Below, in pieces: positions 1-64,000 of a stretch of DNA of 64,000 bases. This DNA comes from Candidatus Cloacimonadota bacterium. Lineage in GTDB: Bacteria; Cloacimonadota; Cloacimonadia; Cloacimonadales; TCS61. The first letter of the stretch is position 1, and each line of letters begins with the position of its first letter. The translations under genes were made by a program, and so were the position numbers. Where the stretch lies: contig JAGGWK010000037.1 of the NCBI GenBank assembly GCA_021157525.1, positions 34,867-98,866 of the forward strand, read 5' to 3'. A model generated the notes under the pieces. The model saw only the letters and a program-made list of their open reading frames with translations, was not told where the DNA came from and ran no database searches.

Positions 1-259
1 TCAGTAGCGAATCCATGATGAGTTTGAGAAGATAGTTAACTTCCATGGCCGAGCGATTCCAGTTTTCTGTGGAGAAGGCATAAACCGTGAGGTATTTTAT
101 ACCGGCATCATAGGCCATCTCGATAGTGCGTCGGGTAGCAGCAACACCGGATTTATGCCCCATCAGCCGCTTTACTTTGTGCTTTTGAGCCCAGCGTCCA
201 TTACCGTCCATAATCACCGCCACATGGACAGGTAATTTGTCCGGATCGAGTTTTTTCAT
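1..259 (-). CDS. uppS: Undecaprenyl diphosphate synthase, N-terminal part only (3' end lies beyond the window start)
   Basis: Own reverse-strand translation from ATG (259-257): MKKLDPDKLPVHVAVIMDGNGRWAQKHKVKRLMGHKSGV...YLTVYAFSTENWNRS. This is the cis-prenyltransferase signature (DGNGRWA, FSTENW). It is absent from the ORF track because the window edge truncates it. Confidence 0.9.
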   Translation of the reverse strand, partial: MKKLDPDKLPVHVAVIMDGNGRWAQKHKVKRLMGHKSGVAATRRTIEMAYDAGIKYLTVYAFSTENWNRSAMEVNYLLKLIMDSLL

Positions 260-273
260 CAATTCTGTTTCGT

Positions 274-1393
274 TCATTTTTTCTCCACTTTTTGCATCAC
301 CACATAGCGGAGGTACGCAGTGATAAAACCGGACAAATCGCCGTCCATTACTTTGGCGGTGTTACCGGTTTCAAAGCCGGTACGATGGTCTTTTACCATC
401 TGGTATGGATGGAATACATAGGAGCGAATCTGGTTTCCCCAGCCGATATCACTCTTGGTTCCCTCCAGAGCTTGCCGTTCTTTTTCCCGTTGCTCTTCAT
501 AATGCTGATAGAGGCGGGAACGAAGAATCTTCATAGCGGTTTCCCGATTCATTATCTGTGAGCGCTCGTTTTGGCACTGCACCACAATATTGGTAGGAAG
601 GTGGGTGATGCGCACTGCGGAATCGGTGGTGTTTACCCCCTGGCCACCTTTGCCGCTGGAGCGATAGGTGTCTATCCGTAGCTCATTGGGCTCAATTTCC
701 ACTTCGATGTCGTCATCAACGATTGGGTACACAAATACCGATGCAAAGGAAGTTTGGCGTTTTCCCTGAGCATTAAAGGGAGAGATACGCACCAGTCTAT
801 GGATGCCAATTTCACTACGTAGATTGCCGTAAGCAAAGTCACCGAAAATCTCCATCGTCACGCTTTTTATTCCGGCCTCGTCACCGGGTTGTAAATCGAC
901 GATGGAAGTTTTATAGCCATTGGTGTCTGCCCAGCGGGTGTACATGCGAAACAGCATCTCTGACCAATCCTGGCTTTCGGTACCTCCAGCACCAGGATGG
1001 ATGGTGAGAATGGCATCTGCGCTATCGTATTTTCCACTGAGTAAAAAACGGGTTTCGATAACATCAAGGTCATCGGCATAGCGGGATGCAGCCATCGCCG
1101 CTTCCTGCAAAAGGACGTCGGAAAAGTCTTCTTTCAGCAATTCATGATAGGTTTGCATTTCTTCGGAGATGGTTATCAGGCGCGCATTTTCCTCCAGTTG
1201 ACCCCGGATAACGGTGATCTGTTTGGTGATGCGCTGCGCTTTCCGCTGGTCATTCCAAAATTCCGGGCTGTTCATCTGGGCTTCCAGTCCGGCCAATTGG
1301 GTTTTTAGGGCATCGATGTCAAAGAAACCTCCGGATCTCTGCGATGCGTAATATGATTGATTCTACTTCACGTTCAAATTCGACAAATTCCAT
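274..1393 (-). CDS. prfB: Peptide chain release factor 2, made from two frames by a programmed +1 frameshift (segments 1393..1322 and 1320..274)
   Basis: ORF 274..1296 carries the SPF tripeptide (RISPFNAQ) and GGQ (SSGKGGQGVNT). Upstream, ATG at 1393-1391 follows AAGGAG and encodes MEFVEFEREVESIILRIAEIRRFL, ending at an in-frame TGA within CTT TGA C. Shifting +1 continues DIDALKTQLAGLEAQMNS into the main ORF. Confidence 0.93.
1318..1334 (-). other. prfB +1 frameshift site: CTT-TGA-C slippery/stop context preceded by an internal SD-like GGAGG
   Basis: The minus strand reads ATCCGGAGGTTTCTTTGAC. CTTTGAC spans 1324..1318 and the SD-like CCGGAGG spans 1334..1328. The E. coli site is AGGGGGTATCTTTGAC. 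Confidence 0.9.
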
Positions 1394-3357: not shown

Positions 3358-3478
3358 ATCTATCTTCGGGGCAGGGTATTTATTCCCGACCGACGGTGAA
3401 AGCCCGTGAGCTGGCAAAAGTCAGCTGATCCGGTGTAATTCCGGAGCCGACAGTAGAGTCTGGATGGGAGAAGGTAGC
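3358..3478 (+). promoter_or_regulatory. FMN riboswitch (RFN element) aptamer
   Basis: TCTTCGGGGCAGGGTATTTATTCCCGACCGACGGTGAAAGCCCGTGAGC...CCGGTGTAATTCCGGAGCCGACAGTAGAGTCTGGATGGGAGAAGGTA matches the conserved RFN core blocks. P1 pairs 3361-3367 with 3470-3476. It lies directly upstream of ribD. Confidence 0.92.
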
Positions 3479-3507
3479 GCGTGAGCTTTATGCTCATGCA
3501 TCATTTC

Positions 3508-3577: not shown

Positions 3578-4741
3578 ATGGAAAGATTCATGCAACGGGC
3601 CTTAGACCTTGCACAAAGGTATCGAGGCGTAACATCGCCCAATCCGATGGTGGGAGCGGTGGTGGTGAAGGATGGCCATATCGTAGGAGAAGGTGCTCAT
3701 CCTCATGCCGGGATGCCACATGCCGAGATATTTGCTCTGCGAAGTGCTGGCAAAGCAGCCAATGGCGCCACACTCTACGTAACCCTTGAACCCTGCAATC
3801 ATCAGGGGAAAACCCCACCTTGCACAGAAGCCATCATTGCCGCCGGCATTACCAGAGTTGTCGCCGCCATGGAAGATCCCAATCCTCTGGTACAGGGCAA
3901 AGGATTTGCGCGATTGCGCCAGTCGGGTATCATGGTAGAGTGTGGGATGCTGGAAGCGCAAGCCCGCAAGCTCAATGAGGTTTTTATCCACTACATCACC
4001 ACCGGCATGCCCTTTGTCACCATGAAAGCTGCCACTTCTCTGGATGGCCGCATCGCCACTCAAACCGGTGACTCCCGCTGGATTTCCAGCCCTTCGGCTC
4101 GGCGGCGGGTACATGAGATGCGCCGGGAATACGATGCTGTGATGATCGGCAAAGGGACATTACTCAAGGATAATCCCCGCCTCAATGTGCGATTGGATGA
4201 AGAGCTGGAAGGACCGCAAAAAATCGTTATCATGCCAAATCTGAATGTTTCAGCCCGGGAGCTTACGAAGATGAATGTGTACCGCACATCCCTTCGAAAA
4301 CCCCTGATAGTCGTCTGTAACCAAGGTGTCGCCCACCGCGACGCAGCGTCGCGGTATGCCGCTCACAATATTCAGTTGATACCGGTGGAAGAAGTAGATG
4401 GCATGATAAATCTGCGCAGTCTGGGCCGGGCTCTTGGTCAGAGCGGCATTACCAGCCTTCTGCTGGAGGGGGGCGCCGGACTTTTTACCAGCTATCTGAA
4501 ACAGCAGCTTATCAACAAAATCACTCTCTTCCAGGGCCCCATCATCATCGGGGCTGAAGGAATGTCTCTGGTGGGACATTGTCAAAATGCCGTCATCCAC
4601 GATGCGTTGCGGCTCAAAGAGATCACCACCAAAAGTTTTGGCGATACCGTACAGATTACCGGCTATCCTACCTACCGGATGCATCCTGTACAAAAAGAGA
4701 ACCAAAATTCCCGGGAGGACTCATGTTTACCGGAATCGTAG
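3578..4741 (+). CDS. ribD: Bifunctional riboflavin biosynthesis protein RibD (pyrimidine deaminase / uracil reductase)
   Basis: Zinc deaminase motifs HAEIFAL and LEPCNHQGKTPPC, plus a C-terminal RibD_C-like reductase part. Start is the ATG at 3578, 8 nt after GGAG. The track start at 3515 lies inside the terminator. Confidence 0.92.
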   Translation: MERFMQRALDLAQRYRGVTSPNPMVGAVVVKDGHIVGEGAHPHAGMPHAEIFALRSAGKAANGATLYVTLEPCNHQGKTPPCTEAIIAAGITRVVAAMEDPNPLVQGKGFARLRQSGIMVECGMLEAQARKLNEVFIHYITTGMPFVTMKAATSLDGRIATQTGDSRWISSPSARRRVHEMRREYDAVMIGKGTLLKDNPRLNVRLDEELEGPQKIVIMPNLNVSARELTKMNVYRTSLRKPLIVVCNQGVAHRDAASRYAAHNIQLIPVEEVDGMINLRSLGRALGQSGITSLLLEGGAGLFTSYLKQQLINKITLFQGPIIIGAEGMSLVGHCQNAVIHDALRLKEITTKSFGDTVQITGYPTYRMHPVQKENQNSREDSCLPES

Positions 4742-7062: not shown

Positions 7063-7146
7063 CGGCAATTCACAGGATTCAGGGTGTAAATTCCATTGAC
7101 ATCAGAAGCCTTGCTCATTTCCCTGCTGACCGAAAAGGAGATGTTT

Positions 7147-8220
7147 ATGAAGTATAAAATCATTTTGTTCCTGCTCTTTGCAGCAAGTCTTTGGGCTGAT
7201 ATCCCCCAAGGTTATTATGATGATGCAGCAGGGCTTTCTGGTACTCAATTGAAGGCAGCACTCCACAATATCATTGATGATCATGTGGAATATTCCTATA
7301 ATGATTTGCGCGATTTTGTGTTGAAAGACACTGACGAAGATCCCAACAACACTAATAATGTGATTCTGCTTTATACCGGTTGGAGCTACCCGAAATCATC
7401 TTTTGGCGGCGGTGCGTCAGACTGGAATCGCGAGCACACATGGGCAAAATCCCATGGCAATTTTGGCACATCAGCACCGGCAGGCACGGATGCACACCAC
7501 ATACGACCCACCGATGTAACCGTGAACTCCGCCCGAGGTAATCTGGATTTTGACAACGGCGGCACCATTTACGTTGATGGTGATGGCGCTACGGAATGCC
7601 GTCGGGACGACGATAGCTGGGAGCCTTGGGATGAGGTAAAAGGTGATGTAGCCAGGATGCTGTTTTATATGGCTGTGCGCTATGAAGGCGGCGGGGGAGA
7701 GCCCGATCTGGAACTTACAGACACCGTTCCTTCATCTCCCAATTATGAGCCTCTTCACGGCAAGATGTCCACGCTCCTGGCCTGGCATCAGCAAGATCCT
7801 CCCAGTGCCTGGGAAGAGCTGCGTAACGATAAAGTCTATTCCTATCAGGAAAACCGCAATCCCTTCATCGATCACCCGGAATATGTTTCTTTAATCTGGG
7901 GTGGAACCGCTGTACAGCCGGAAATTTGCAGCCAGCCGATGGTAGCTACCGCCTATCCAAATCCCTTTAACCCCTCAACCACTATCAGCTTTTCCTTGGA
8001 TGCAAAAATTGCCGGACAGCAACCGGTTAGGGTTGAGGTGTTCAATGTCAAAGGTCAGCAAATCAAGGTCCTGATGGTAAATTCTGAGATTTCCGGATCG
8101 GGCTCTGTTACCTGGGATGGTACCGATAACACCAATGCTACGCAATCCAGCGGAGTTTATTTCTATCGCGTTACGTCCGGAATACAGCAAGCCTATGGCA
8201 AAGTGTTGATGATCAAATAG
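7147..8220 (+). CDS. Secreted endonuclease I family nuclease with a T9SS-type C-terminal sorting domain
   Basis: Signal peptide MKYKIILFLLFAASLWA. Endonuclease-I-like motifs WNREHTWAKSHG and DAHHIRPTDVTVNSARGN. C-terminus AYPNPFNPSTTISFSL...GVYFYRV resembles the Por/T9SS type A sorting domain. Confidence 0.75.
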   Translation: MKYKIILFLLFAASLWADIPQGYYDDAAGLSGTQLKAALHNIIDDHVEYSYNDLRDFVLKDTDEDPNNTNNVILLYTGWSYPKSSFGGGASDWNREHTWAKSHGNFGTSAPAGTDAHHIRPTDVTVNSARGNLDFDNGGTIYVDGDGATECRRDDDSWEPWDEVKGDVARMLFYMAVRYEGGGGEPDLELTDTVPSSPNYEPLHGKMSTLLAWHQQDPPSAWEELRNDKVYSYQENRNPFIDHPEYVSLIWGGTAVQPEICSQPMVATAYPNPFNPSTTISFSLDAKIAGQQPVRVEVFNVKGQQIKVLMVNSEISGSGSVTWDGTDNTNATQSSGVYFYRVTSGIQQAYGKVLMIK

Positions 8221-8425: not shown

Positions 8426-8583
8426 GATGCTGTTTTTGCAAATCACGAATTGCGAAATTAACGATATAAGATTAAGTTTGATTTTGAAATACACTCACTT
8501 TTTACGGAACGACCTTCTGCATAACCATAAAAAAATGGCGGGAGTGACGGGACTTCCCGACTCGTCGGGACAATCTTCTGCGT
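8426..8583. repeat. Direct repeat copy A (~158 bp), ending in a degenerate tRNA-Asp 3' half
   Basis: Aligns with 8943..9101 at a 517-bp offset, with 6 substitutions and 1 indel by eye. Confidence 0.9.
8536..8583 (-). pseudogene. Degenerate copy of the tRNA-Asp 3' half (variant anticodon-stem segment ACGCAGAAGATT + replaced T-arm + acceptor 3' strand + CCA)
   Basis: The minus strand reads ACGCAGAAGATTGTCCCGACGAGTCGGGAAGTCCCGTCACTCCCGCCA. The last 18 nt are identical to the 3' end of the intact tRNA-Asp at 9116..9192. Confidence 0.8.
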
Positions 8584-8615
8584 GTGAAATGTTCCAGGAA
8601 GGTTTATTGAATCGC

Positions 8616-8870
8616 TTACATTTGTTGCTTTTTCATAATGAGATTCTCAATGTAAATTCTGCTTTTCTGTCGTTTGATTTCATTTTCACGCTTCATTGCC
8701 TCCCCTTTTGTATCGTACTCTTCATGATATAGTATCTTCCAGGGAATGCCGGCTTTCGTTGATTTCGACCATCCGGCATTATGCCGTTCCAGGCGCGATG
8801 CCAGATCATGCGTATGACCAATATAATATCGATCGATCGATCGAGAATAAAGAATGTAAGTAAAGAACAT
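8616..8870 (-). CDS. Small stand-alone GIY-YIG nuclease-family protein (84 aa)
   Basis: FFTYILYSRSIDRYYIGHTHDLASRLERHN...EAMKRENEIK matches the GIY-(x10)-YIG, conserved Arg and distal Glu/Asn pattern of URI/GIY-YIG domains. Confidence 0.8.
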   Translation of the reverse strand: MFFTYILYSRSIDRYYIGHTHDLASRLERHNAGWSKSTKAGIPWKILYHEEYDTKGEAMKRENEIKRQKSRIYIENLIMKKQQM

Positions 8871-8942
8871 TGCAAATCCATTATAAATGTTGTTGTGAAT
8901 ATTGCTTCAATGTCGCGTTTATTTATAAGAACGATGCTTTTT

Positions 8943-9101
8943 GATGCTGTTTTTGCAAATCACGAATTGCGAAATTAACGATATAAGATTAAGCTTGATT
9001 TTGAAATACACTGACTTTTTACGGGACGACCTTCTGCGTAACCATAAAAAAAATGGCGGGAGTGACGGGACTTCCCGACTCGTCGGGACGACCTTCTGCG
9101 T
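8943..9101. repeat. Direct repeat copy B (~159 bp), ending in a degenerate tRNA-Asp 3' half and abutting the intact tRNA-Asp
   Basis: See copy A. This is the same sequence shifted by 517 bp. Confidence 0.9.
9054..9101 (-). pseudogene. Degenerate copy of the tRNA-Asp 3' half, 62 bp downstream-phased from the intact tRNA
   Basis: The minus strand reads ACGCAGAAGGTCGTCCCGACGAGTCGGGAAGTCCCGTCACTCCCGCCA. The first 12 nt and last 18 nt are identical to the real tRNA. The T-arm is replaced by a TCCCGA/TCGGGA hairpin. Confidence 0.8.
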
Positions 9102-9115
9102 AACCATAAAAAAAA

Positions 9116-9192
9116 TGGCGGGAGTGACGGGACTCGAACTCGCGACCTTCTGCGTGACAGGCAGACGTTCTAACCAACTGAACTACACCCCC
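9116..9192 (-). tRNA. tRNA-Asp (anticodon GTC), CCA encoded
   Basis: Hand-folded 77-nt cloverleaf: GGGGGTG TA GTTC AGTTGGTTA GAAC G TCTGC CTGTCAC GCAGA AGGTC GCGAG TTCGAGT CCCGT CACTCCC G CCA. All stems pair except an A52-C62 mismatch in the T-stem. Confidence 0.9.
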
Positions 9193-14291: not shown

Positions 14292-15983
14292 ATGAGTACT
14301 AACGAACCAAATACAGAACTGAGAAGACATTTTATCCGAGACATCATAGAAGCCGACATAGCTACCGGAACCTTCGGCGGAAAAGTGGTAACCCGCTTCC
14401 CACCGGAACCTAACGGTTTTTTGCACATCGGCCACGCCAAAGCCTTTTGCCTGAGCTACGGCCTGGCTGAAGATTATCATGGCGTGTATAATTTGCGCTT
14501 TGACGACACCAACCCCGTTAAGGAAGATCCCCGCTTTGTGGAAGCCATTAAGAAAGATATTAAGTGGTTGGGATTTGATTGGGAAGATCGTGAATATTAT
14601 GCTTCGGACTATTTTGAGCAGATGTATGGCTATGCCGTGGAACTGATAAAAAAGGATAAAGCCTTTGTGGATAGCCAAACATTAGATGAGATTCGGAAAA
14701 ACCGTGGCACTATCAAATCACCTGGAACCAACAGTCCATACCGCACCCGAAGCATCCAGGAGAATCTCGACCTTTTTGCCAGGATGCGTGCCGGTGAATT
14801 TGAAGACGGTGCCCTGGTTCTCCGTGCCAAGATAGATATGGCATCACCAAATATGCTGATGCGCGACCCCATCATGTATCGCATCCGTCATGCCCGGCAT
14901 CACCGCACGGGAGACTCTTGGTGCATCTACCCGATGTACGATTATGCTCACTGTTTGGAAGATTCTATCGAAGGCATCACACACTCCCTCTGCTCACTGG
15001 AATTTGAAGCCCACCGTCCATTGTACGATTGGTATCTGGAACAGCTGAACATCCACCATTCCAAGCAGATCGAATTTGCCCGCCTGAACATCACCCACAC
15101 GGTATTGAGCAAACGAAAAGTAGAAACCCTGGTGTCTGCCGGCGTGGTAGAAGGCTGGGACGATCCTCGCCTCCTTACCCTTTCCGGTTTGCGGCGACGT
15201 GGCTATACACCACAATCCATCCGCAATTTCATCGATCGCATCGGTGTGGCAAAATCACTGAGTACCGTGGACTTCGCTCTCCTCGAGCACACCGTTCGGG
15301 AAGACCTCAATAAACGCTCTAACCGCGTGATGGCGGTGCTAAATCCCGTTAAGGTGATTATCGATAACTATCCAGCCGATCAGACGGAAGAGATGCAAGC
15401 CATCAATAATCCCGAAAATCCCGAAGCCGGAACCCGACTCGTACCCTTCTCCCGCGAACTTTTCATCGAGCGGGATGACTTTATGGAAGAGCCGCCCAAG
15501 AAATTTTATCGCCTTGCTCCCGGCCGGGAAGTGCGGTTGCGCTACGCCTATTTCATTACCTGCACCCACGTAGTCAAGGATGCATCCGGCACAATCACCG
15601 AGATTCATTGTACCTACGACCCCGCCACCAAAGGTGGCAATGCGCCTGATGGTCGCAAAGTAAAAGCCACCATGCACTGGGTTTCTGCTGCCCATGCGTA
15701 CGATGCAGAAGTACGGCTGTATGACAAGCTGCTCACTGTAGAATCTACCGACGAAGTGGCAGAGGGTAAAACCTTTATGGACTATATCAATCCCAATTCT
15801 CTGGAGATTCGCAGTCACTGCAAGCTTGAGCCATCCCTGGCAAAGGCAGCTGCCGGAGATCGCTTCCAGTTTGAACGGTTGGGCTATTTCTCTGTTGACC
15901 CGGTTTACTCAACTCCCGGCAGACCCGTGTTTAATCGCACTGCCACCCTGCGGGACGAATGGGCAAAACTGAGGAAAAAATAG
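14292..15983 (+). CDS. glnS: Glutaminyl-tRNA synthetase
   Basis: [18 protein letters not shown] (HIGH) and VLSKRK (KMSKS). GlnRS-type C-terminal beta-barrel region. Confidence 0.93.
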
Positions 15984-18481: not shown

Positions 18482-20161
18482 CTAATACACTTTCCGTAGC
18501 GCCTGTGCGATGTTTAAGGATTTATCGCCAATATGCTCAAAATGCTTGAGTAAATCCAGATAGAGCAATTCAGATTTTACATCAGCACCATGTTGCAAAC
18601 GCTCCTGAGCTGCTTGCTTCAGGTCATCCCGCAGATGGTTTATCTTGTTTTCCAGACGATAGGCAAGGTCTAACACTTTCGGTTCCAGGCCTTCATTCAT
18701 CTGCTGTTTGTAGAGCTCTATAAATTCCTGGATGAGCTCAACGAAGTCGTTAAATTCATTCATTGCTTTGGGATGGAGGGTGATTTTATTATCGTATTTC
18801 CGCTGAGTGAGTAGCATCAGTTTATACACGCTATCCCCTATATTTTCCAGCTCATTAACTATGCGCATCATAGCATTGATGTTCTTCACATTGGCATCAC
18901 TGAGAGTTTCGCCGCTGAGCTGAACCAGGTATTGGGTGATCTGCTCCTGCATCTGATCGGTATAATCTTCTTTTTCTTTTATATCAGAAACGATATTCCC
19001 CATCTTTTTGTCAGGATTTCTAAAGACATGCAAAAAGGTCTCAAACATTTCATCGATGACTCTGGCCATGTGAGTAATTTCTTCACGCGCCTTGATGATG
19101 TTCAATTCCGGTGTATTTTGCAAGCTGGTACTGATGTACACCAGACGGTATTCTTTTTGTGCATCTTGAGGTGTTTCCTTCACCAACTTGGTAACCGCAA
19201 TGGTGATATATGAGATGAGGGGAATACAGATGAGAGTATTGGTGACATTGAACATTGTGTGGAATAGTGCCAAATTAAGGGGAAGATTCACCATATTTCC
19301 CTGGTCGTTAACCAGATATGGGTCCCAAGGTGCCACATGGAGCACCAATTTAATGAAATAGGGGAAGACTATTGCCATCCAGATCACACCAAAGGTGTTG
19401 AACAGAAAATGAGCCCGGGCGGCTCTCCTGGCATTTACGGTGGTTCCCAAAGAGGCCAGATAGGCTGTGACGGTGGTACCTATATTCTCGCCCAACACAA
19501 TAGCTGCTGACGTCTCAAAATTTATCCATCCCATATAGGCCATGGTAACGGTAATCGCCATGGCTGCACTGGATGACTGGACGACAACAGTGAGCACCGA
19601 ACCTACCAGAACGAAGATAACAAAGGAGAGAAAACCAAGGTCTGTGTAATTTCTGAGAAATTCCAGAATTTCGGGATTTGATTTGATGTTTGGTACCGAA
19701 TCTTTGAGGAACATCAGTCCCAGAAAGAGCAAACCAAATCCGATGAGGATTTCACCAAAATCCCGTCTGCGAACAGTTTTGGCAAACATAAAGGGTAACC
19801 CTACACCAATGATTGGCAAAGCAATGGCGGTGATATTGAATTTAAAACCGATTAGCGAGACAATCCATGTGGTTACCGTGGTTCCAATGTTCGCGCCCAT
19901 TATCACCCCGATTGCCTGGGTGAGGGAAAGAAGTGACGCATTTACAAAACTCACTACCATTACCGTTGTTGCCGATGAAGATTGGATGAGGGCTGTGATG
20001 ATAAAACCTGTTAAGACGGCCAGATAGCGATTTGCTGTCATGTAATTGAGGATCCGCCGAAGCCGTTCTCCGGCAGTACGTTGCAGTGCGTCGCTCATCA
20101 CGCGCATCCCGTACAAAAAGACGCCTAAAGAACCCAATAGTTTAAAGATCAATACAATCAT
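18482..20161 (-). CDS. Na+/phosphate cotransporter family protein with a C-terminal PhoU-like domain
   Basis: Duplicated Na_Pi_cotrans blocks (QSSSATTVMVVSF / QSSSAAMAITVTM), followed by a helical PhoU-like tail (ENIGDSVYKL, FEHIGDKSLNIAQ). Confidence 0.88.
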   Translation of the reverse strand: MIVLIFKLLGSLGVFLYGMRVMSDALQRTAGERLRRILNYMTANRYLAVLTGFIITALIQSSSATTVMVVSFVNASLLSLTQAIGVIMGANIGTTVTTWIVSLIGFKFNITAIALPIIGVGLPFMFAKTVRRRDFGEILIGFGLLFLGLMFLKDSVPNIKSNPEILEFLRNYTDLGFLSFVIFVLVGSVLTVVVQSSSAAMAITVTMAYMGWINFETSAAIVLGENIGTTVTAYLASLGTTVNARRAARAHFLFNTFGVIWMAIVFPYFIKLVLHVAPWDPYLVNDQGNMVNLPLNLALFHTMFNVTNTLICIPLISYITIAVTKLVKETPQDAQKEYRLVYISTSLQNTPELNIIKAREEITHMARVIDEMFETFLHVFRNPDKKMGNIVSDIKEKEDYTDQMQEQITQYLVQLSGETLSDANVKNINAMMRIVNELENIGDSVYKLMLLTQRKYDNKITLHPKAMNEFNDFVELIQEFIELYKQQMNEGLEPKVLDLAYRLENKINHLRDDLKQAAQERLQHGADVKSELLYLDLLKHFEHIGDKSLNIAQALRKVY

Positions 20162-20326
20162 GATACTCCAATTTCTATTTATTTTCTGCTATTTTAGGAA
20201 GCGGCGCAGGTTGTCAAATGTAAAATGTGAAATGGCAGGAAAAAGGAAGGTTTTATCGTACGCTTCCGTAAGGATGCAAAGAAGTCGAGGGCCTACGCTT
20301 TCGCTTATCATAGAATGTTGTCCGGA

Positions 20327-20800
20327 TTAACCTTCCATAAATCCGTCCAACTCGGATGCATCAAACCAGATCATGGAGCCGTGGATGCGATTGATCTCAT
20401 CCTGTAACAACTCTGCATGGTTTTTTTCTTCAGCAGCAAGCTCCATAAATAACTTTTTCAGCTCCGCATCGTCGGTGGTTTTTGCGAAATTGAGATATCC
20501 TGCCTCGGCGATATTTTCACGTTTGATGGCAAATTCCAGCGCACCCTCTGGATCATCCAAGTGTTCGCCTTCGGTAAGAATGGGGATGAGGGCATAGTTT
20601 ATGGTGAGCTCATCTTCGGGATTTTCGTGTCGATAGAGAGCAATCAGCTTCTCTTCGTGGGCTTTTTCCATAGGTACAAGCCGTGTAAACATCTCAACCG
20701 CATGAGTGTCTTTAAAGGCATTTGCCAGTGCGCGATACAGATTCTGAGATTTCACCTCGTTTTCAATGGCAAAAAGTAACGCCTCTTTTCTGGTGGTCAT
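20327..20800 (-). CDS. Ferritin-like / rubrerythrin-family diiron domain protein
   Basis: Two E-x-x-H-type helices (PMEKAHEEKL and AAEEKNHAELL) in a 157-aa four-helix-bundle-like sequence. AGGAGG RBS. Confidence 0.65.
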   Translation of the reverse strand: MTTRKEALLFAIENEVKSQNLYRALANAFKDTHAVEMFTRLVPMEKAHEEKLIALYRHENPEDELTINYALIPILTEGEHLDDPEGALEFAIKRENIAEAGYLNFAKTTDDAELKKLFMELAAEEKNHAELLQDEINRIHGSMIWFDASELDGFMEG

Positions 20801-20927
20801 GATTTCCTCCTCTGATTTTTTTTCTGGACTTACAATCGCTTTTCCCTCTCAGGATGGCAACACAAAAATCCTTTAACCTCTTTTTTGTAAGGATGCAGAG
20901 AATTTTACCGATACCCCTTTTTCGGGA

Positions 20928-22316
20928 TTATTGGGAATTAAATGCATCCTTTCCCATGAGGTATTTGGCGGCATTGGGGCACACATCTCGAGCCCATTTT
21001 TCTATTTGCAGAGAAACTTCGCGGATTTCCCATTGAGAATGGCTGTCGGAACGAAGCCGCGTAAAATGATACAGCTCTCGCAAATTTGCCTTGAAGATCA
21101 CACCGATTTTATGAGAATTGGTAAGTATGTAGCTGCCCAGCCCCGGTTTTATCGCATCGAGCGCAAAATAGAGGGCATCCACTTTGCGCATGAGCAGGGC
21201 GATCTCGGCTTCGGCACCAATATCATGCAGTAGCGGCGGCACCACGTATCCACGGTCTGGATGGTAAGTGGTGGGCAGAATTGTGCTCATCCTGTGCCGC
21301 TTGAGTTGGCCGAAACAGCTGGAAGAAATCACCAGTTTAAAGGTGAAGTAGGCGATTTCAAATGCCCGAGGTACACTGTGATAACTTTTCATTCCCTGAA
21401 AAAGTTCATCAAAAATAGCAGCTTTCTCGTCATTGCTTCTGTCATGCACCCAATTTTTTATCAGTACGGGATCGTGACCATATTTCTCAAAGAGCAACGA
21501 GGCAAGGATGGATTCTTCGGGAAATGCCGAGTGTCCAAGCATTTCCATTGCTGTGTTATCTGGCAAATCCGGGATATGAGGTAACCGTTGCGACATCTCG
21601 GTGGTAAAAGCTTCAGCCTTCGTGTAGCGTATCAGCGAAGGAGCAACGGATGCTACCTGCTGTTCCAAGGCAACTTTCAGAGCTTTGGCTTCGGCAAGAG
21701 GAGATGCATCCAGGCGACGAAGAAGGCCTTCCAGAGAGCGGGCATTGATGGTCATTCCCAATTGGGTTTTGGTGGCGAGAGACAGCACATAGCGAGCATC
21801 TTCTTTGGCGCGACCAAATCGTTCCCGGGGTGTTCCTTTCCAGCCAATGGCATCAAGGTGTTCTTTGGCACGGTTGTAGAGAGTCTCATACAGATGATTC
21901 TGCCGGGTGATAAGAGCGGTAAATTCACCTTCCAGTGATGTGCCCTCGATTTCCCCGGGCAAGACAAAATCGCCATCCAGGGTAACGTAGCGTTGGGATT
22001 TCTCTGTGAAAGAGGCAAGGCGGCTGCGTTCGATGGTTTCCACCAGATATCGTGAGATGCCGATGATATCGAAGTTGAAAACAGCGTGTTCCGCTACGGA
22101 GCTGTGTCCCATCTCAAAGATAATCATTTCGTTAGATTTACGGGCTTTTTCCACCTCGTCCCGGGCTTGCTCCCGCAGTTGTGTTACACTCTTTTTGCTT
22201 CTACTGATGCGCGCATAGGCGGCAGAGAGTATCTCCGGCGTTACCTGTGCACGATTTTTTAATTGATCACTAACGACGGTATCTACATTAAATCCGGCTA
22301 ACGTAACTTTCATCAT
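20928..22316 (-). CDS. thyX: FAD-dependent thymidylate synthase, tandem two-domain form (462 aa)
   Basis: N-half: GHSSVAEHAVFNF, RSRLASFTEKSQRY, ARYVLSLATKT...NARSLEGLLRRL. C-half: YHSVPRAFEIAYFTF, KRHRMS, NLRELYHFTRLR. There are two ThyX-like units in one chain. Confidence 0.8.
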   Translation of the reverse strand: MMKVTLAGFNVDTVVSDQLKNRAQVTPEILSAAYARISRSKKSVTQLREQARDEVEKARKSNEMIIFEMGHSSVAEHAVFNFDIIGISRYLVETIERSRLASFTEKSQRYVTLDGDFVLPGEIEGTSLEGEFTALITRQNHLYETLYNRAKEHLDAIGWKGTPRERFGRAKEDARYVLSLATKTQLGMTINARSLEGLLRRLDASPLAEAKALKVALEQQVASVAPSLIRYTKAEAFTTEMSQRLPHIPDLPDNTAMEMLGHSAFPEESILASLLFEKYGHDPVLIKNWVHDRSNDEKAAIFDELFQGMKSYHSVPRAFEIAYFTFKLVISSSCFGQLKRHRMSTILPTTYHPDRGYVVPPLLHDIGAEAEIALLMRKVDALYFALDAIKPGLGSYILTNSHKIGVIFKANLRELYHFTRLRSDSHSQWEIREVSLQIEKWARDVCPNAAKYLMGKDAFNSQ

Positions 22317-37949: not shown

Positions 37950-38025
37950 TGGTGGCAGGACCCAGACTTGAACTGGGGACACAAGGCTTTTCAGGCCTCT
38001 GCTCTACCGACTGAGCTATCCCGCC
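37950..38025 (-). tRNA. tRNA-Phe (anticodon GAA), CCA encoded
   Basis: Hand-folded 76-nt cloverleaf: GGCGGGA TA GCTC AGTCGGTA GAGC A GAGGC CTGAAAA GCCTT GTGTC CCCAG TTCAAGT CTGGG TCCTGCC A CCA. Confidence 0.93.
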
Positions 38026-38439: not shown

Positions 38440-38937
38440 TTATGGCATATCTTCTTTTCTAAGGTTTTTATAGGGCCACGAAAAAGAATGGGAAAGATAT
38501 TTGGGGGATTGTGTAACAATTCTGTTCACAGCCGGTTCATATCGATACAACGGAATAGTGAATTGCAACAAGTGCTTTTCGCTGGGAGTTAATCGAAATT
38601 GAATCATACCAATAGAGCCCAGATATGTGGGATTAAGGTAGTATTTTTCAATGAGTTCAAAGGGATAGGAATCCACAACGTCAGTTATCATGAGAGATGC
38701 AGATACATCGGGATACTCTGAGATAAAGTAGTCTATCTTTTCCCGTTGAGTTGCGGGAGCAATGGTGAATTTTGTATTGAGGGATTGAGACAGAGTGAGG
38801 GACGTTTTGGCCTCAATCCGCTTATAGGCTACGGGAAATGAAGTTATCTGAGATGATGAAAAGAGTGAATCTCCACAAAATATAAGTGTTGGCATCCAGA
38901 GAAAGATCCCAAAAAGAGTTCGCAATCTGGTAGTCAT
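38440..38937 (-). CDS. Hypothetical exported protein (possible lipoprotein)
   Basis: 165-aa ORF with an N-terminal hydrophobic segment ending LIFCGD. I recognise no family. Confidence 0.5.
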   Translation of the reverse strand: MTTRLRTLFGIFLWMPTLIFCGDSLFSSSQITSFPVAYKRIEAKTSLTLSQSLNTKFTIAPATQREKIDYFISEYPDVSASLMITDVVDSYPFELIEKYYLNPTYLGSIGMIQFRLTPSEKHLLQFTIPLYRYEPAVNRIVTQSPKYLSHSFSWPYKNLRKEDMP

Positions 38938-40503: not shown

Positions 40504-40707
40504 AGTAACTCCTTTTGTTGAGAGGATTTTCTCCCGGTTTTAGCACCAACAGGGCCAAAACTTTCATGCCCTGTGCCAGCACTCGTTCATTAATGTCAAA
40601 CTGCGATGTGTGAGCAAGCATTTTTTTTCATTACCTTCTGGATGCAGACGTACAATACCAAAGAGGTTTGCCTCAAAAGCGATGAAATCGGTGATTCCCT
40701 TCATAGG

Positions 40708-54089: not shown

Positions 54090-57020
54090 ATGCGTAATAC
54101 ACTGGCAATGATACTATTGCTACTTACAGTCAACCTCTGGAGTAAACCCGATGCACAGATATACCTTACTCAGGACAGCACTTGCGTTACTATCCATGAA
54201 TTAGCCGAAGCACTACAGGAATTCGATGTGATTTTTTTTGGTGAGTATCATGATAACGCCATCCTTCACAGGCTGGAGATTGAGCTTTTGCAAGAATTGG
54301 TCACCACCACACCATCCCTGGTGGTTTCCATGGAGATGTTTGAGCGGGACACCCAGGATGTACTGGATTCCTTTTTAGATGGACGCATGGAAGAGAAGGA
54401 GTTTATCACCCTCTCCCGTGCATGGCCAAACTATCCCACTGATTACAAGCCCATCATCGATTTTTCTCGGCAAAAGGGACTGCCTGTGATAGCTGCCAAT
54501 ATTCCCAGGAAATATGCGGCAAAAGTACGCCATGAAGGTTGGAAAGCCGTGGATAGCATTCCCATTGCCCAGCGACGTTTTATAGCCCGCAATCTGGTGG
54601 TTCTCGATGATGCCTACAAAACCAAGTTTTTTGCTACCATGCAGGCAAATATGGGCTCGCGCGCCATGCCGGGTTCCGAGGCAATGTTCGGTTCACTTTA
54701 TCGGGCTCAATGCCTCAAGGACGATACGATGGCCGAAAGCATCGCTGATTACCTCTCTCACCACCCCGGTGCCAAAATCATCCATTACAATGGGGATTTC
54801 CATAGTAACAGTCACCTGGGTACCGCGCAAAAACTCGCGCTTCTCAATCCCGAATTGAAGATTGGTGTTATCACGCCGGTATTAGTAGAGCCCGAAGCAC
54901 CGCTGGAGTTCCATCCCGACTTTGCAACCCAGGGAGATGTGGTGATTGTGATGCACCGGACACCTACAAAAGCTGAAGCCGCTGCAATGTTTAAAGAGCA
55001 GTCAAAACCCCAAAAACATCAGATAAAAATCGAGCTGGAACCGGAAAATCATAGGATATTCGGCAAAGACACCATCACCTTTTCAGCGCCTGTAGCGCAT
55101 CCAGACACCCTCTATTTCCTTAAAGAAATGGAGGTTCATTCGGTAAAAGCCAATGGGGAAGAGCTCTCTTTTACCTACGAGCCTGAGGATGATTCCTACT
55201 CATTGCTTATCGTAAAATCTCAGAAACCGATAAGCTCAATGACCATTCTCTACGAAGGAGAAATTTATCAACCCCTCAAAGGACGCTCTGCTCAGCAGCA
55301 TCACGACGGCACACGGGGAATTATCTCCGGAGCCGATAACGAAGGGATCTATCTGCCACCAGCCAGCTGGTATCCACAGCTTATCAATGATCCTCTTATG
55401 GATTTTGAAGTGTACGCAGCAGTTCCAGCCGCCTTTACCCTCATCACATCCGGCGCTGTGGAACGGCACATGCAGGACGGAATGTCCTATGCATCCTGGA
55501 AAACAGAGCAGCCTACCGATGGCCTCACCTTGGTTGGAAATCGCTTTACGGAGCATGTGCGGCAGATAGACGGCATTACCCTCAGCACCTATCTTCTGGA
55601 TGCAGACGATGCCACCGCAGAGAGCATTCTCGATTCTCTTGCTGAATATCATGCCACCTATTCAGCCCTTTTTGGCCCCTACCCATACTCCTCTTTTGCT
55701 TTGGTGGAAAACTTCTTTGCTTCGGGATTTGGTATGCCAGGCTACACCGTTATCGCGCCACAGCTCATCCAGATGCCCATGATTTTGCTTTCACCCGGTG
55801 CTTTGGCCCATGAATTTGTTCATGGCTGGTGGGGAAACAGCGTGTATGTGGATTATGATAAAGGCAACTGGTGCGAGGCGTTAACCGTTTTTTCCACTAA
55901 TTATTACTGGCATGTTTTGCAGCATGACGCAATGAAAGCTCAGGCATGGCGCGAAGATGCACAACTGGCCTACAACCTTTTGCCTGAAGAAAATCGATAT
56001 CCCCTTAGAAATTTCATTTACCAAAGAACCGATGACGATGCCGTAATTGGCTACGACAAAGGTGCATCCCTGCTTATCCAAATCCGGAGAATTCTGGGAG
56101 ATGAAGCATTTTTTGATGGGATTCGAAATTTCTACACTTCTTACAAAGGCAGGGAAGTTGGCTGGGATGCATTACTCGCTGAATTTCAGCAAGGACCTCA
56201 TGCCGATGCCATCGGTCAATTGTGCCATCTATGGCTGGATGAGACCACCATCCCGGCTATAACAATAGATGGTTTTACTCCCGATGAAGAGGATGCATCC
56301 TTCACTATTTCTCTGCATCAAACAGGCTCCACATTTCCACTGCTTCTTGATATGAGCTATAGATACGCAGGGGGCGTGAAAAGGGATTCCTTCTTCTTTT
56401 CCACAGCAGACACCACCCTCTCTGTTAGACTGCCCAAACCGCTCACCGAGATCACCGTTGACCCGGCTCACTACATCATGAAAAAAATCGAAACTGACAA
56501 CCTGCCCTACATGCTTTCACGTACATTGGCCGATTCAACACTGTGCATCCTGCCGGCAAAAAAAGAGGCAAAAGACCGCTATCTTCCCTTTATAAATTAC
56601 ATCATAAATGACAATATATCTCTTTGCAGTGATAAGAATTATAAAAAGCAAAACTGGAAGGAAAAAAATCTCTTGGTAATGGGAAGCTACCACTCAAACG
56701 GCATGATAAAAAAACTCGCCAGAAAACTCCCTGACGGTTTTTCTCCGGGAAAAGGAGAGTTCACCATCCATTCAGCTACTTACTCCGAACCCACTGCCGC
56801 ACTGCTGGTAAGTTTTGCCCACCCTTATGCTCCGGGAAAAATGATCACACTCTACCTGGAAAACAGTTCAGATACACCCTTTTCGGCACGACGGCTTTTG
56901 CACTATATGCATGATTCCTGGATTGTGCTGGGTGGCGGTATGGGCCACGCTCCCAAAGGGATGCTCTCACCTCCCGACGCCTCGCCCTATGTTTGGACGA
57001 CGGAAGCACTGAAGAAATGA
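54090..57020 (+). CDS. Secreted fusion protein: ChaN/Tiki-like (PF04187-like) N-domain + M1-type zinc aminopeptidase-like C-domain
   Basis: Signal peptide MRNTLAMILLLLTVNLWS. ChaN-like FDVIFFGEYHDNAILHRLEIELL...MEMFERDTQ...VIAANIPRK. M1-like LVEN (GAMEN position) and HEFVHGWWGNSVYVDYDKGNWCE (HExxH...E). AAGGAG RBS 8 nt upstream. Confidence 0.7.
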   Translation: MRNTLAMILLLLTVNLWSKPDAQIYLTQDSTCVTIHELAEALQEFDVIFFGEYHDNAILHRLEIELLQELVTTTPSLVVSMEMFERDTQDVLDSFLDGRMEEKEFITLSRAWPNYPTDYKPIIDFSRQKGLPVIAANIPRKYAAKVRHEGWKAVDSIPIAQRRFIARNLVVLDDAYKTKFFATMQANMGSRAMPGSEAMFGSLYRAQCLKDDTMAESIADYLSHHPGAKIIHYNGDFHSNSHLGTAQKLALLNPELKIGVITPVLVEPEAPLEFHPDFATQGDVVIVMHRTPTKAEAAAMFKEQSKPQKHQIKIELEPENHRIFGKDTITFSAPVAHPDTLYFLKEMEVHSVKANGEELSFTYEPEDDSYSLLIVKSQKPISSMTILYEGEIYQPLKGRSAQQHHDGTRGIISGADNEGIYLPPASWYPQLINDPLMDFEVYAAVPAAFTLITSGAVERHMQDGMSYASWKTEQPTDGLTLVGNRFTEHVRQIDGITLSTYLLDADDATAESILDSLAEYHATYSALFGPYPYSSFALVENFFASGFGMPGYTVIAPQLIQMPMILLSPGALAHEFVHGWWGNSVYVDYDKGNWCEALTVFSTNYYWHVLQHDAMKAQAWREDAQLAYNLLPEENRYPLRNFIYQRTDDDAVIGYDKGASLLIQIRRILGDEAFFDGIRNFYTSYKGREVGWDALLAEFQQGPHADAIGQLCHLWLDETTIPAITIDGFTPDEEDASFTISLHQTGSTFPLLLDMSYRYAGGVKRDSFFFSTADTTLSVRLPKPLTEITVDPAHYIMKKIETDNLPYMLSRTLADSTLCILPAKKEAKDRYLPFINYIINDNISLCSDKNYKKQNWKEKNLLVMGSYHSNGMIKKLARKLPDGFSPGKGEFTIHSATYSEPTAALLVSFAHPYAPGKMITLYLENSSDTPFSARRLLHYMHDSWIVLGGGMGHAPKGMLSPPDASPYVWTTEALKK

Positions 57021-60373: not shown

Positions 60374-60881
60374 ACAAGCACCTCCAACTATACGACACAT
60401 TCAACAAATTAACCTTCCGCTGTAAACAAATTTCACGCATTCCCCGGAAAAGTTCGATTGTTGTTGCAGTAACTCTCTAAAAAGTATGGGTTTAAGGCTG
60501 AAGATAACATAAAAAGCGTATTGAAAAGAAATGCCCTTTTTTTATGGTATTATAGAAAACCCAAAAATGAGGGTAGAGACTCCGGTCTGTACCCTTCCTT
60601 TTATATCTATGTCCATAATGAGTTAGGTGCTTTTCACTGAGTTTGCATCCTGATAGTAAGAAATACCGTGATGTTTGCCGCGGCGAAACGTAGTGAATAC
60701 GGGTTCGCTGCAAAAAGTTTCCCCTTTGCATCTTTCTCCGTCGCGCCGTCCTGTCACAACGTAATGGAATGAAGGCGGAGCGCACTTGGCGGTGAAAATA
60801 AGAGGAAACAGACAGGCTGCATCTTTTTTATTTGACATATCAACTGCATAAAGCCAAATCTTGCACCAAAGGAGAAACAGT

Positions 60882-62747: not shown

Positions 62748-62802
62748 TTTTTCGGTTTACAGTGCATGGCACCCGGGAAAATCTGGCATCATGAGGTAAA
62801 TA

Positions 62803-64000
62803 ATGAAAGTTTATATAGAAACCTATGGCTGCCAGATGAATGTGGCCGACAGCGAGCTGGTGATGTCGATCTTGGGAAAGGAGCAACACACTGCTGCCGC
62901 ATCCATCGACGAAGCCGACGTGATAATCTTCAATACCTGCTCGGTGCGTCAGCACGCTGAAGACAGAGTATTGGGACGCATCTCTGCCGAAATGACCAGA
63001 AAGCGCCAGAAACCCCACATGAAAATAGGTGTGATCGGTTGCATGGCTCAGCGTCTGGGAGATAAACTGCACCAGATGAACAAGGGCATAGACTTTGTGG
63101 TTGGGGTAGATCAGTATCAGCAATTGCCTGCCATCATCTATGGATTGGAGCAGAAAGAGGATTTTGTTACCGCAACGGCGGTTAATCACAACGAAACCTA
63201 CAACAATCTGTATCCGGTACACACCGGTGATTTCAACGCCTTTGTTACTATCATGCGAGGATGCAATAACTTCTGTTCCTACTGCATCGTGCCCTACACC
63301 CGGGGCCGTGAGCGCAGTCGTCCAGTAGAAGAGATTTTGCAGGAAGTGCGGGAAGTGGGGGAGAAGGGCTTCCGTGATGTTACCCTTCTGGGCCAAAATG
63401 TGAACTCATATCACTACAGGGATGTGGACTTTCCCGAACTCCTGCGCAGAGTTAATGAGATTTCTTCCATACGACGCATCCGTTTTGTCACCTCGCATCC
63501 CAAAGATCTCTCTGATAACCTCATCAGCACCATGGCATCCTGTGAAAAAGTATGTGAACATGCCCACATCGCCATGCAGAGTGGCGACAATGCCATCCTG
63601 AAACGGATGAACCGGGGATACACTTTCGAGCATTTTTTGGATATCGCCGCCAAACTACGGAAAGCAATGCCGGGATTTGCTCTCACCACCGACATCATTG
63701 CCGGATTCCCCGGAGAAACCGAAGAACAGTTCATGGCCACCTACCACGCCATGGAAGCTATCGAATTTGATTACGCTTTTACCTTTAAGTATTCCCCCCG
63801 CACCGGCACCAAAGCCGCAGCCTTTACCGATCAGGTTCCCGAAGCAGTGCGGCTGGAACGGCTGCAACGGCTTATCGAATTGCAACAGGACATCACCCTG
63901 CGAAAGTATCAAGAGCAGACAGGCACAATAAAAGAGATTTATGTGGAAAAGGTGTCAAAAAAATCTGACAAGGAAGTGGCAGGGAAGAGTCGTGACTTCA
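62803..64000 (+). CDS. miaB: tRNA-i6A37 methylthiotransferase, N-terminal ~400 aa (3' end beyond the window)
   Basis: Own translation: MKVYIETYGCQMNVADSELV...FNTCSVRQHAEDRV (UPF0004 domain) and the radical-SAM site GCNNFCSYCIVPYTRGRERS. GAGG RBS. Absent from the ORF track because it runs off the window. Confidence 0.9.
   Translation, partial: MKVYIETYGCQMNVADSELVMSILGKEQHTAAASIDEADVIIFNTCSVRQHAEDRVLGRISAEMTRKRQKPHMKIGVIGCMAQRLGDKLHQMNKGIDFVVGVDQYQQLPAIIYGLEQKEDFVTATAVNHNETYNNLYPVHTGDFNAFVTIMRGCNNFCSYCIVPYTRGRERSRPVEEILQEVREVGEKGFRDVTLLGQNVNSYHYRDVDFPELLRRVNEISSIRRIRFVTSHPKDLSDNLISTMASCEKVCEHAHIAMQSGDNAILKRMNRGYTFEHFLDIAAKLRKAMPGFALTTDIIAGFPGETEEQFMATYHAMEAIEFDYAFTFKYSPRTGTKAAAFTDQVPEAVRLERLQRLIELQQDITLRKYQEQTGTIKEIYVEKVSKKSDKEVAGKSRDF

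Follow-up and report, generated by a model that had tools for sequence, protein, structure and literature searches.

GGATGC(A), a short asymmetric word over-represented throughout a 64-kb region of a Cloacimonadota genome

The DNA analyzed here (the window) is a 64,000-nucleotide stretch of a Cloacimonadota MAG. Its genes include trmB, ribD, glnS, kdsA, a tRNA-Phe gene and genes for a dihydrolipoyl dehydrogenase-like protein, a SurA-like PPIase and an amino-acid permease; a search for driver genes by Pfam annotation of 51 window ORFs (nearly all of the long ones) returned housekeeping genes only. The feature of interest is distributed over all of this DNA. Exact counting on the plus strand gave 38 copies of GGATGCA and 34 of TGCATCC, together with 75 GGATGC and 66 GCATCC hexamers (141 in all), in close agreement with hand counts reported in an earlier note on this sequence (∼38, ∼33, and ∼140). 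The seven-mer sites are as follows.

1 to 64000, no strand assigned: window-wide excess of GGATGC(A)/(T)GCATCC, 72 seven-mer sites
GGATGCA, start positions: 1084, 2988, 4677, 7488, 7998, 10488, 12202, 12660, 15578, 16761, 17589, 20272, 20354, 20891, 25410, 26668, 28338, 32353, 36377, 37835, 38033, 38275, 40201, 40640, 41281, 44595, 48073, 51149, 52711, 55598, 56165, 56291, 57557, 58373, 59111, 59477, 61321, 63259
TGCATCC, start positions: 2991, 4680, 5835, 6499, 6777, 10440, 10698, 13325, 13358, 15581, 20943, 21705, 22480, 23517, 26148, 28169, 31266, 32356, 34382, 36365, 37524, 41284, 41599, 46818, 47149, 47482, 52122, 53177, 55490, 56063, 56294, 56544, 58226, 60644

Site density is ∼1.1 per kb (about one per 0.9 kb), of which ∼0.8–0.9 sites per kb are excess. 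Each 8-kb bin contains 6 to 13 sites and is balanced between strands, the spacing is even and Poisson-like (coefficient of variation 0.95), and the same density was found in 14 kb of flanking DNA past the window and in independently assembled contigs of the species. The 72 observed sites compare with 7.2 expected from base composition, 14.5 under an order-1 Markov model, and 18.5 under an order-2 model (3.9-fold). At every word length from 4 to 8, the GGATGC(A) family was the most over-represented under both Markov and codon-preserving nulls, with z of 13 to 17 as compared to 6 to 10 for the next unrelated words. Enrichment builds up by ∼1.2- to 1.4-fold per base added from GATG to CAGGATGCA, and the nine-mers CAGGATGCA and CTGGATGCA reach 8- to 10-fold over expectation. 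For CAGGATGCA, over-representation drops with increasing mismatch load (9.9-, 2.3-, 1.0-, and 0.9-fold), while the one-mismatch forms of the seven-mer are overall without enrichment (0.91). A literature search found no mention of GGATGC(A) as a motif.

As most sites lie in genes, the excess was compared with three protein-aware nulls: shuffling of synonymous codons, shuffling of codon order, and a wobble shuffle preserving local context. Codon-pair bias (GAT-GCA, GCA-TCC) had been proposed in the earlier note as an alternative source of the word, and it was considered together with bias in the corresponding dipeptides, Asp-Ala and Ala-Ser. Frame 2 indeed accounts for most genic sites (xxG GAT GCA in 23 of 33, xxT GCA TCC in 23 of 32), a preference that arises because this frame includes three wobble positions and encodes amino acids that are common. 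Under synonymous-codon shuffling, however, 65 genic seven-mer sites were observed against 18.9 expected (3.4-fold, z 13.2), and when every wobble-centered trinucleotide was kept, with protein and codon usage fixed, the counts were 33 versus 11.5 and 32 versus 8.9. Every frame exceeded expectation in genes of both strands, the two frames other than frame 2 by 1.7- to 2.4-fold for the seven-mers, and both orientations were equally enriched, which bears out the earlier description of balanced orientations in several reading frames. Spacers contained 7 sites against 0.70 expected, a number reached in 0 of 500 simulations. The frame-resolved counts and the wobble shuffle thus refute a coding artifact, to which we assign next to no probability: loss of the excess upon codon shuffling together with its absence from intergenic DNA would have spoken for such an artifact, and neither was found, as the word survives the shuffles and is enriched whatever the frame or orientation, spacers included. 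In this bacterium and its closest relatives, GGATGCA occurs about once per kb, 3 to 5 times as often as their proteins and codon habits would call for, and constitutes a real DNA-level signature of the kind known for uptake sequences or methylation-linked words.

The unit of this signature is an asymmetric word, roughly C-W-GGATGC-A. At GGATGC sites, C stands at position −2 in 49% of cases, and 65% have A or T at −1, while information content is ∼0 beyond positions −2 to +7; the earlier statement that the flanks carry no longer consensus holds in that no longer repeat surrounds the sites, but a base preference does extend into the nearest flanking positions. Copies of a dispersed repeat or of a small mobile element (MITE, REP) that happens to include the word would account for the high copy number and nothing more. 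This reading was rejected for want of information in the surrounding sequence, and the location of sites in unrelated housekeeping genes at Poisson-like spacing likewise makes it a negligible alternative. The palindrome GGATGCATCC, to which the earlier note had drawn attention, is present in exactly six copies as listed there.

2988 to 2997, no strand assigned: GGATGCATCC, two overlapping half-sites, within trmB
4677 to 4686, no strand assigned: GGATGCATCC, within ribD
15578 to 15587, no strand assigned: GGATGCATCC, within glnS, missing at the orthologous position of the sister clade
32353 to 32362, no strand assigned: GGATGCATCC, within the dihydrolipoyl dehydrogenase-like gene
41281 to 41290, no strand assigned: GGATGCATCC, within the SurA-like PPIase gene
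56291 to 56300, no strand assigned: GGATGCATCC, within a ChaN/M1-peptidase gene

These six copies compare with 3.7 expected from independent half-sites and 5.8 under a maximal-order Markov model, such that the palindrome shows no excess of its own. It was rejected as the unit; the six copies are accidental overlaps of two half-sites and a by-product, with the enriched unit being the asymmetric half.

The six intergenic sites previously listed were all recovered, and a seventh was added at 40640. Positions below are those of the seven-mer.

20272 to 20278, minus strand: reads TGCATCCTTAC towards a Na/Pi-cotransporter gene, whose start lies 111 nt downstream
20891 to 20897, minus strand: reads TGCATCCTTAC towards a rubrerythrin-like gene, 91 nt upstream
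37835 to 37841, minus strand: reads TGCATCCTTGT, ∼39 nt upstream of the kdsA start
38033 to 38039, minus strand: TGCATCC, ending 7 nt before the 5′ end of tRNA-Phe, with TTGACA ∼25 nt further upstream
38275 to 38281, minus strand: TGCATCC, possibly inside a 36-codon ORF
40640 to 40646, minus strand: TGCATCC, newly added, 137 nt upstream of a hypothetical gene
60644 to 60650, plus strand: in an intergenic region between divergent genes, reading TGCATCC towards the amino-acid permease gene

All seven lie upstream of genes and are oriented towards the downstream gene. Within the two spacer regions scanned (37780–38460 and 20150–20940), the sites showed no match to the sigma-70 promoter consensus on the relevant strand, and no terminator-like sites were found. 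Spaced inverted pairs were not seen, the sole very close pairs being the six self-overlapping palindromes.

Whether related genomes share the word, a question raised in the earlier note, has a divided answer. Two sister-lineage samples, L039 and L132 (only 19 and 13 kb), share the CWGGATGC core at weaker enrichment, with GGATGC at 1.85-fold in L039 and 2.4-fold in L132, and CAGGATG is the top seven-mer of the pooled sister sample. The seventh base differs in L039, where GGATGCC is enriched 3.3-fold and GGATGCA 1.5-fold; GGATGCA reaches 3.4-fold in L132, both figures coming from these small samples. The word was not enriched in five more distant, low-GC Cloacimonadota loci. GC content is 46 to 50% in the clade as compared to 32 to 40% in other Cloacimonadota. 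Orthologous positions keep the word about twice as often as control words: relative to the sister clade, 19 of 49 GGATG sites were conserved versus 10.75 expected from phase-matched controls (p = 0.006), and 8 of 20 GGATGC sites versus 3.88 (p = 0.027). Among strains of the species, one SNP fell in motif positions against 4.5 expected, and the 334 to 400 SNPs from 12 to 13 same-species contigs, which afford too little power, included one site loss and no gains. Viral contigs with CAGGATGCATCCTG gave 75 matches, none with a convincing motif density, the best (L065) having 5 extra sites in 7.3 kb. A metagenome scan with RpoN yielded only 3 loci. GGATGC(A), or more fully C-W-GGATGC-A, is thus a lineage-specific, hyper-abundant word of double-stranded DNA.

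With a probability of roughly three in four, we infer that a sequence-specific drive acting on duplex DNA turns near-matches into matches and retains them. The engine ranked first, as the best fit to the anatomy of the word, is tentatively a weak, short uptake word resembling the DUS of Neisseriaceae and the USS of Pasteurellaceae. Biased uptake or recombination of own-species DNA would then be the engine: fragments bearing the word would be preferentially taken up or recombined, and the word would therefore accumulate by molecular drive until balanced by mutational decay at ∼one site per kb. Counting against the uptake reading is the lack of overall enrichment among one-mismatch seven-mers. 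Uptake specificity is also, to our knowledge (see also PMC1939737), known solely from Pasteurellaceae and Neisseriaceae. Competence genes, pilins, and other uptake machinery were not found in the 78 kb seen, a result of little weight, as these 78 kb cover a minor fraction of the genome. The modest per-base build-up of enrichment would also be expected if mutation or repair were weakly biased by sequence context, and the drive model leaves the common orientation of the seven spacer sites towards downstream genes unexplained.

Close behind the uptake reading ranks a methylation- or mismatch-repair-linked word, as in the HIP1 model or in very-short-patch (VSP) repair at Escherichia coli Dcm sites, a possible if somewhat less favored engine. 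A methyltransferase would mark GGATG, GCATC, or a sub-site, repair would favor the methylated word, and the process would ratchet to ∼1 per kb. GGATG and GCATC, both contained in the word, are among the commonest specificities of Type IIS and orphan methyltransferases. Consistent with this, orthologous sites are retained above controls, and the genome has clearly been shaped by restriction-modification pressure: the earlier remark that words of this kind are usually avoided is apt, since several restriction-type words, GGWCC (0.18) and CTAG (0.14) among them, are strongly avoided here and yet GGATGC(A) is enriched. The density equals the set-point of ∼1 per kb derived by Elhai for methylation-directed repair (PMC4390886), and among one-base variants those altered at the outer positions 1, 6, and 7 show 1.3- to 2.4-fold enrichment, with those at inner positions 2 to 5 neutral or mildly depleted (0.35–0.9), the same outer-soft, inner-hard pattern as in HIP1 (PMC4390886). 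Against it, no single transition neighbor is strongly depleted (GAATGCA 4 versus 8.0; GGATACA 7 versus 8.6). The G-to-A neighbors GAATG (0.81), GAATGC (0.68), and GAATGCA (0.50) are matched by equally depleted transversion neighbors (z about −2), and none of the 21 one-off neighbors, all of them checked under the codon null, stands out as a VSP partner word. CCWGG is at exactly 1.00, and there is therefore no Dcm/Vsr-type signature; the asymmetry of the word also sets it apart from HIP1 and Dcm sites. The methylases known for GGATG and GCATC produce m6A, a modification not known to be subject to repair of the very-short-patch type. Neither a DNA methyltransferase nor a Vsr gene was found in the 78 kb seen, the low-powered strain SNPs revealed no hypermutable C or hypermutable context, and a literature search found no methylation motifs for Cloacimonadota.

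A lineage-specific, context-dependent mutation or replication-repair bias could instead inflate GATG-centered words with no function, partly as a by-product of avoiding related words. The multiplicative build-up from GATG to CAGGATGCA fits such a neutral signature, as do the avoidance of several one-off neighbors for other reasons (GGATC/GATC 0.66–0.72, GGAGG 0.48), the z of ∼6 reached by other unrelated words, and the GC shift of the clade, which points to altered mutation or repair. The family nevertheless tops each word length by a wide margin, its excess survives the trinucleotide-preserving wobble shuffle, and its conservation exceeds that of phase-matched controls; compatible dipeptides are also ∼2-fold enriched in the protein sequences, with the codon-order null below the synonymous null. 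We consider this explanation unlikely. Less likely again are recognition sites of a DNA-tracking or DNA-binding protein kept by selection, such as Chi sites (RecBCD/AddAB) or sites of an abundant nucleoid protein. Chi has been predicted in other genomes as the most over-represented five- to eight-mer under a codon-aware null, with comparable enrichments; CTGGATG also bears a loose likeness to E. coli Chi (CTGGTGG), and conservation of the sites exceeds that of controls. A skew of 65 to 80% is characteristic of known Chi and KOPS sites, however, and in this window the strands are in balance for the seven-mer (38:34), the five-mer (185:179), and CWGGATG (51:55), with no switch along its length; on these grounds Chi and KOPS were rejected, although GC skew is flat in the window and replication direction therefore not readable. 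Nor is the word G-rich.

Hyper-abundant short words are rare handles on whole-genome processes (uptake, recombination, methylation-directed repair, and self/non-self marking), which are unstudied in Cloacimonadota, a phylum of uncultured syntrophs of digesters and sediments. It is a doubtful prospect that GGATGC(A) might serve a Cloacimonadota genus as a functional word for recognizing its own DNA. In that case either DNA uptake sequences would for the first time extend beyond Proteobacteria, or an asymmetric HIP-like word kept by methylation-directed repair would for the first time be known from a group other than cyanobacteria, with a second, transcription-linked role for the oriented TGCATCC of spacers. 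A clade-specific word at one per kb is in any case a ready marker for binning and for recognizing DNA of the lineage, and it provides a concrete hypothesis for long-read methylomes or metagenomic recombination maps. Even if only a mutational signature, it would mark a change in replication or repair coinciding with a 10- to 15-point rise in GC in the clade.

Among known systems, the words shaped by Dcm/Vsr VSP repair in E. coli (CCWGG) share with GGATGC(A) a modest genome-wide excess in all contexts, attributed to repair bias with no function invoked; in that signature, excess of one word goes together with depletion of a T-containing neighbor, whereas no such partner was found for GGATGC(A) and CCWGG is neutral here. 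Polar words such as Chi and KOPS are likewise top seven- to eight-mers under a codon-aware null at comparable fold, but carry the strong replication-linked strand skew that GGATGC(A) lacks. HIP1 (GCGATCGC) and the alternate highly iterated palindromes of cyanobacteria resemble it in occurring at ∼one site per kb in coding and non-coding DNA, in orthologous conservation above control words, in the clustering of one-base variants at outer positions, and in a suspected link to methyltransferase-type sequences (PMC4390886, PMC5861425). HIP1 differs in being a palindrome over-represented 15- to 300-fold, while the iterated unit here is asymmetric and GGATGCATCC a by-product, and in that a matching methyltransferase is known for HIPs, the link of GGATGC(A) being a candidate only. 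The likeness to DUS and USS suggested in the earlier note holds for density, strand symmetry, even spread, asymmetric unit, and, as far as two small sister samples show, sharing by related lineages, and fails for strength and length. Uptake sequences are words of 9 to 12 bp over-represented by two orders of magnitude (183-fold in H. influenzae, 392-fold in N. gonorrhoeae; PMC1939737), as compared to 7 to 9 bp and 4- to 10-fold for GGATGC(A). The inverted pairs that serve as terminators in Neisseria spacers have no counterpart in the two spacer regions scanned, and the host belongs to another phylum and is uncultured. Shared by both are an asymmetric short word at ∼1 per kb, equally frequent on the two strands and evenly spread, use of all reading frames with a preference for those encoding common peptides, apparent occurrence in related lineages (here in two small sister samples, one of which may differ at the seventh base), and an over-representation that declines as mismatches accumulate (PMC1939737).

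The word GGATGC(A)/(T)GCATCC is genuinely and reproducibly in excess in the window, which has a base composition of 46.8% G+C and a flat GC skew. Exact plus-strand counts were 38 GGATGCA and 34 TGCATCC for the 7-mer and 75 GGATGC and 66 GCATCC for the hexamer, with the palindrome GGATGCATCC starting at 2988, 4677, 15578, 32353, 41281, and 56291; the earlier note, which had claimed a window-wide excess from hand counts and these six positions, agrees almost to the digit. On both strands, 72 GGATGCA were observed as compared to 14.5 and 18.5 expected under order-1 and order-2 Markov models, making it the highest-ranked 7-mer of the window by Markov k-mer ranking, and its relatives CATC, CATCC, GCATCC, and CAGGATGC headed the lists at other k. 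A second, unrelated 8-mer, GGCGATAA/TTATCGCC, was also over-represented (14 versus 1.8, order-2 Markov, whole window), as were its relatives CGATAA and GATAAA; a codon-preserving null in the window genes left this 8-mer outside the top ranks, so its excess may be coding-driven.

Approximately 92% of the window is coding, and the genes are ordinary housekeeping ones (prfB, ribDEBAH, gltX, glnS, holB, metK, ptsI, hprK, rpoN, lpt genes, kdsA, and others). The window also holds two tRNAs and the following features:
3358–3479: FMN riboswitch (112.5 bits), ordinary, ahead of the ribD-ribE-ribBA-ribH operon
8426–8583 and 8943–9101: 158-nt direct repeat, 96% identical, flanking ~360 bp
~8700–8890, minus strand: GIY-YIG-like ORF between the repeat copies
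8505–8555, 9022–9072, and 9084–9134: three copies of the tRNA-Asp 3' end
9116–9192, minus strand: the real tRNA-Asp, which these copies adjoin
Contig L033 of the same species carries only one copy here, so 8426–9192 appears to be a small insertion at the tRNA that varies between strains.

Genes contain 33 GGATGCA and 32 TGCATCC. Expected counts were 5.3 and 4.0 with codon order shuffled, 11.1 and 7.4 with synonymous codons shuffled and the protein fixed, and 11.5 (z 7.2) and 8.9 (z 9.8) in a wobble shuffle, where wobble bases were swapped only among codons with equal first two bases and an equal following base. With strands collapsed, the 65 genic copies exceeded the synonymous expectation of 18.9 (z 13.2; top 7-mer of the window genes), and the word family also ranked first among 4-, 5-, 6-, and 8-mers under the codon-preserving null. 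Most genic sites fall in frame 2 (xxG GAT GCA; xxT GCA TCC), a preference explained by that frame having wobble bases at three positions and coding for common amino acids; the remaining frames were enriched 1.7- to 2.4-fold as well. Spacers, totaling 5.25 kb, held seven 7-mers versus 0.70 expected, and at least 7 was reached in 0 of 500 simulations. A coding artefact (codon or dipeptide bias) is ruled out by the three nulls, the other-frame enrichment, and the spacer excess; loss of the excess after codon- or dipeptide-preserving shuffling together with absence of spacer enrichment, by which the earlier note had proposed to recognize such bias, was not seen in the window. The excess is a property of the DNA, biasing synonymous sites and, approximately 2-fold, amino acid sequence (codon-order versus synonymous null).

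With 141 aligned GGATGC sites as anchor, the following base was A in 51%, position −2 was C in 49%, and position −1 was A or T in 65%, while flanks beyond these positions carried no information; the word is therefore asymmetric, with a unit close to C-W-GGATGC-A. Overlap of two half-sites accounts for the palindrome count (6 observed; 3.7 from independent half-sites, 5.8 under a maximal-order model). Sites are evenly spread (6–13 per 8 kb; Poisson-like spacing, CV 0.95) and balanced between strands throughout the window (7-mer 38:34, 5-mer 185:179, CWGGATG 51:55). Over-representation of CAGGATGCA dropped with mismatch load (9.9-, 2.3-, 1.0-, and 0.9-fold). Under the synonymous null, one-base variants of the 7-mer were enriched up to 2.4-fold at outer positions 1, 6, and 7 and neutral to mildly depleted at positions 2–5, with no outstanding single transition neighbor.

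The spacer copies are distinguished by orientation:
20272, 20891, 37835, 38033, 38275, 40640, and 60644: spacer sites, each one TGCATCC when read in the direction of the gene downstream
Every GGATGC in the spacers, seven in all, is the complete 7-mer. In co-directional spacers, 6/6 share this orientation (two-sided p ~0.03; overall p ~0.02–0.03, on small numbers), unlike the equal genic orientations (33:32); the remaining site lies in a divergent spacer. One site ends 7 nt ahead of the tRNA-Phe 5' end, and three share TGCATCCTT. No sigma-70-type match coincided with the sites in the spacer regions scanned, and the extra 14 kb of same-species flank held no further spacer site. In spacers the word may serve a distinct role linked to transcription. 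A TGGCAC-N6-TTGC box (~37868–37884, minus strand) precedes kdsA of the kdsA-lptABC-rpoN-hpf-hprK cluster and resembles a sigma-54 promoter, although its spacing exceeds the consensus by one base.

The window GlnRS is identical to MCD6181562.1 of a Candidatus Cloacimonadota MAG. Thirteen same-species contigs (ENA, JGI, NCBI, and Logan assemblies; 99.4–99.7% identity) showed equal word density, with 7 + 7 more sites in the 14 kb beyond the two window ends and 1 of ~95 covered GGATGC sites polymorphic. Sister loci L039–L044 (GlnRS 83% identity, ~75% nucleotide identity, 46–50% GC) were enriched for GGATGC (1.85-fold), CAGGATGC (5-fold), and GGATGCC (3.3-fold) but only 1.5-fold for GGATGCA, the seventh base apparently differing in this one sister sample. 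The further relative L132 (SurA-like protein 62% identical) showed GGATGCA at 3.4-fold and CAGGATG at 5.5-fold; with the sister samples pooled, CAGGATG ranked first among 7-mers. The excess was absent in five more distant Cloacimonadota loci (Ca. Tenebribacter davisii, L053, L001, L019, and L002; 34–40% GC), in L130 and L131 (RpoN only 56% identical, 32% GC, taxon not established), and in the Bacteroidota and other loci examined. Against phase- and strand-matched controls, 19/49 GGATG sites (10.75 predicted, p = 0.006) and 8/20 GGATGC sites (3.88 predicted, p = 0.027) were conserved in the sister clade. The word has been inherited and maintained over ~25–34% nucleotide divergence and is thus an ancient feature that a small clade has kept. 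This clade has 46–50% G+C, the other Cloacimonadota loci compared (among them L001, L002, L019, L051, and L053) have 34–40%, and the more distant L130 and L131 have 32%; the GC rise and the word excess may have a common cause.

What is established is that an asymmetric word of duplex DNA is in excess on both strands alike and regardless of position; its likely cause is a sequence-specific drive, for which four candidate engines are weakly ranked. Biased uptake or recombination, as for DNA uptake sequences (DUS/USS), is ranked first at a tentative probability of roughly 0.3; no other experimentally established process is known to give unskewed asymmetric words at ~1 per kb that vary from one related species to the next. 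Against this reading stand the far lower fold-enrichment and shorter word, and no terminator-type inverted pairs were found among window site pairs or in the two spacer regions scanned. One gene encodes what would be a secreted DNase, as predicted from its domains:
7096–8220: EndA/Dns-type Endonuclease I domain and C-terminal T9SS sorting domain in a single fusion protein
If the uptake reading is true, this DNase could matter for handling of extracellular DNA.

Methylation-directed or mismatch repair, as in the HIP1 model or very-short-patch (VSP) repair, comes next and is only slightly less probable. The word density fits the 1-per-kb set-point of the HIP1 methylation-directed repair model (PMC4390886), the variants are outer-soft and inner-hard, and the word contains GGATG and GCATC; however, no clearly depleted partner word stood out, CCWGG is neutral (1.00, codon-preserving null), and no methyltransferase was seen in the 78 kb of window and same-species flank. 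Neutral context-dependent mutation bias, an unlikely third, is consistent with multiplicative build-up of the excess and the clade's GC shift but accords less well with the positional conservation and amino acid effect. Chi-like or protein-binding sites are improbable, the missing strand skew speaking against Chi. Under the codon-preserving null in window genes, several words were strongly avoided: GGWCC (11 versus 59.5, 0.18), CTAG (7 versus 50, 0.14), CGCG (0.45), GGAGG (0.48), GAGTC (0.56), TTAA (0.61), TATA (0.65), and GATC (0.72). The deficit of GGWCC suggests that a restriction system of AvaII type has long been resident.

No paper in the literature searched mentions the word. It can be placed among the hyper-abundant, lineage-specific oligonucleotides already known as a class, but departs from each family in a defining trait. 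It shows no clear partner word as in very-short-patch repair, lacks the skew of Chi, and falls short of HIP on palindromy and of DUS/USS on length (shorter) and fold-enrichment (two orders lower here). Its density is nearest both DUS/USS and HIP1; its anatomy is nearest DUS/USS, and the mismatch-load profile of CAGGATGCA has the shape of an uptake-sequence profile (PMC1939737).
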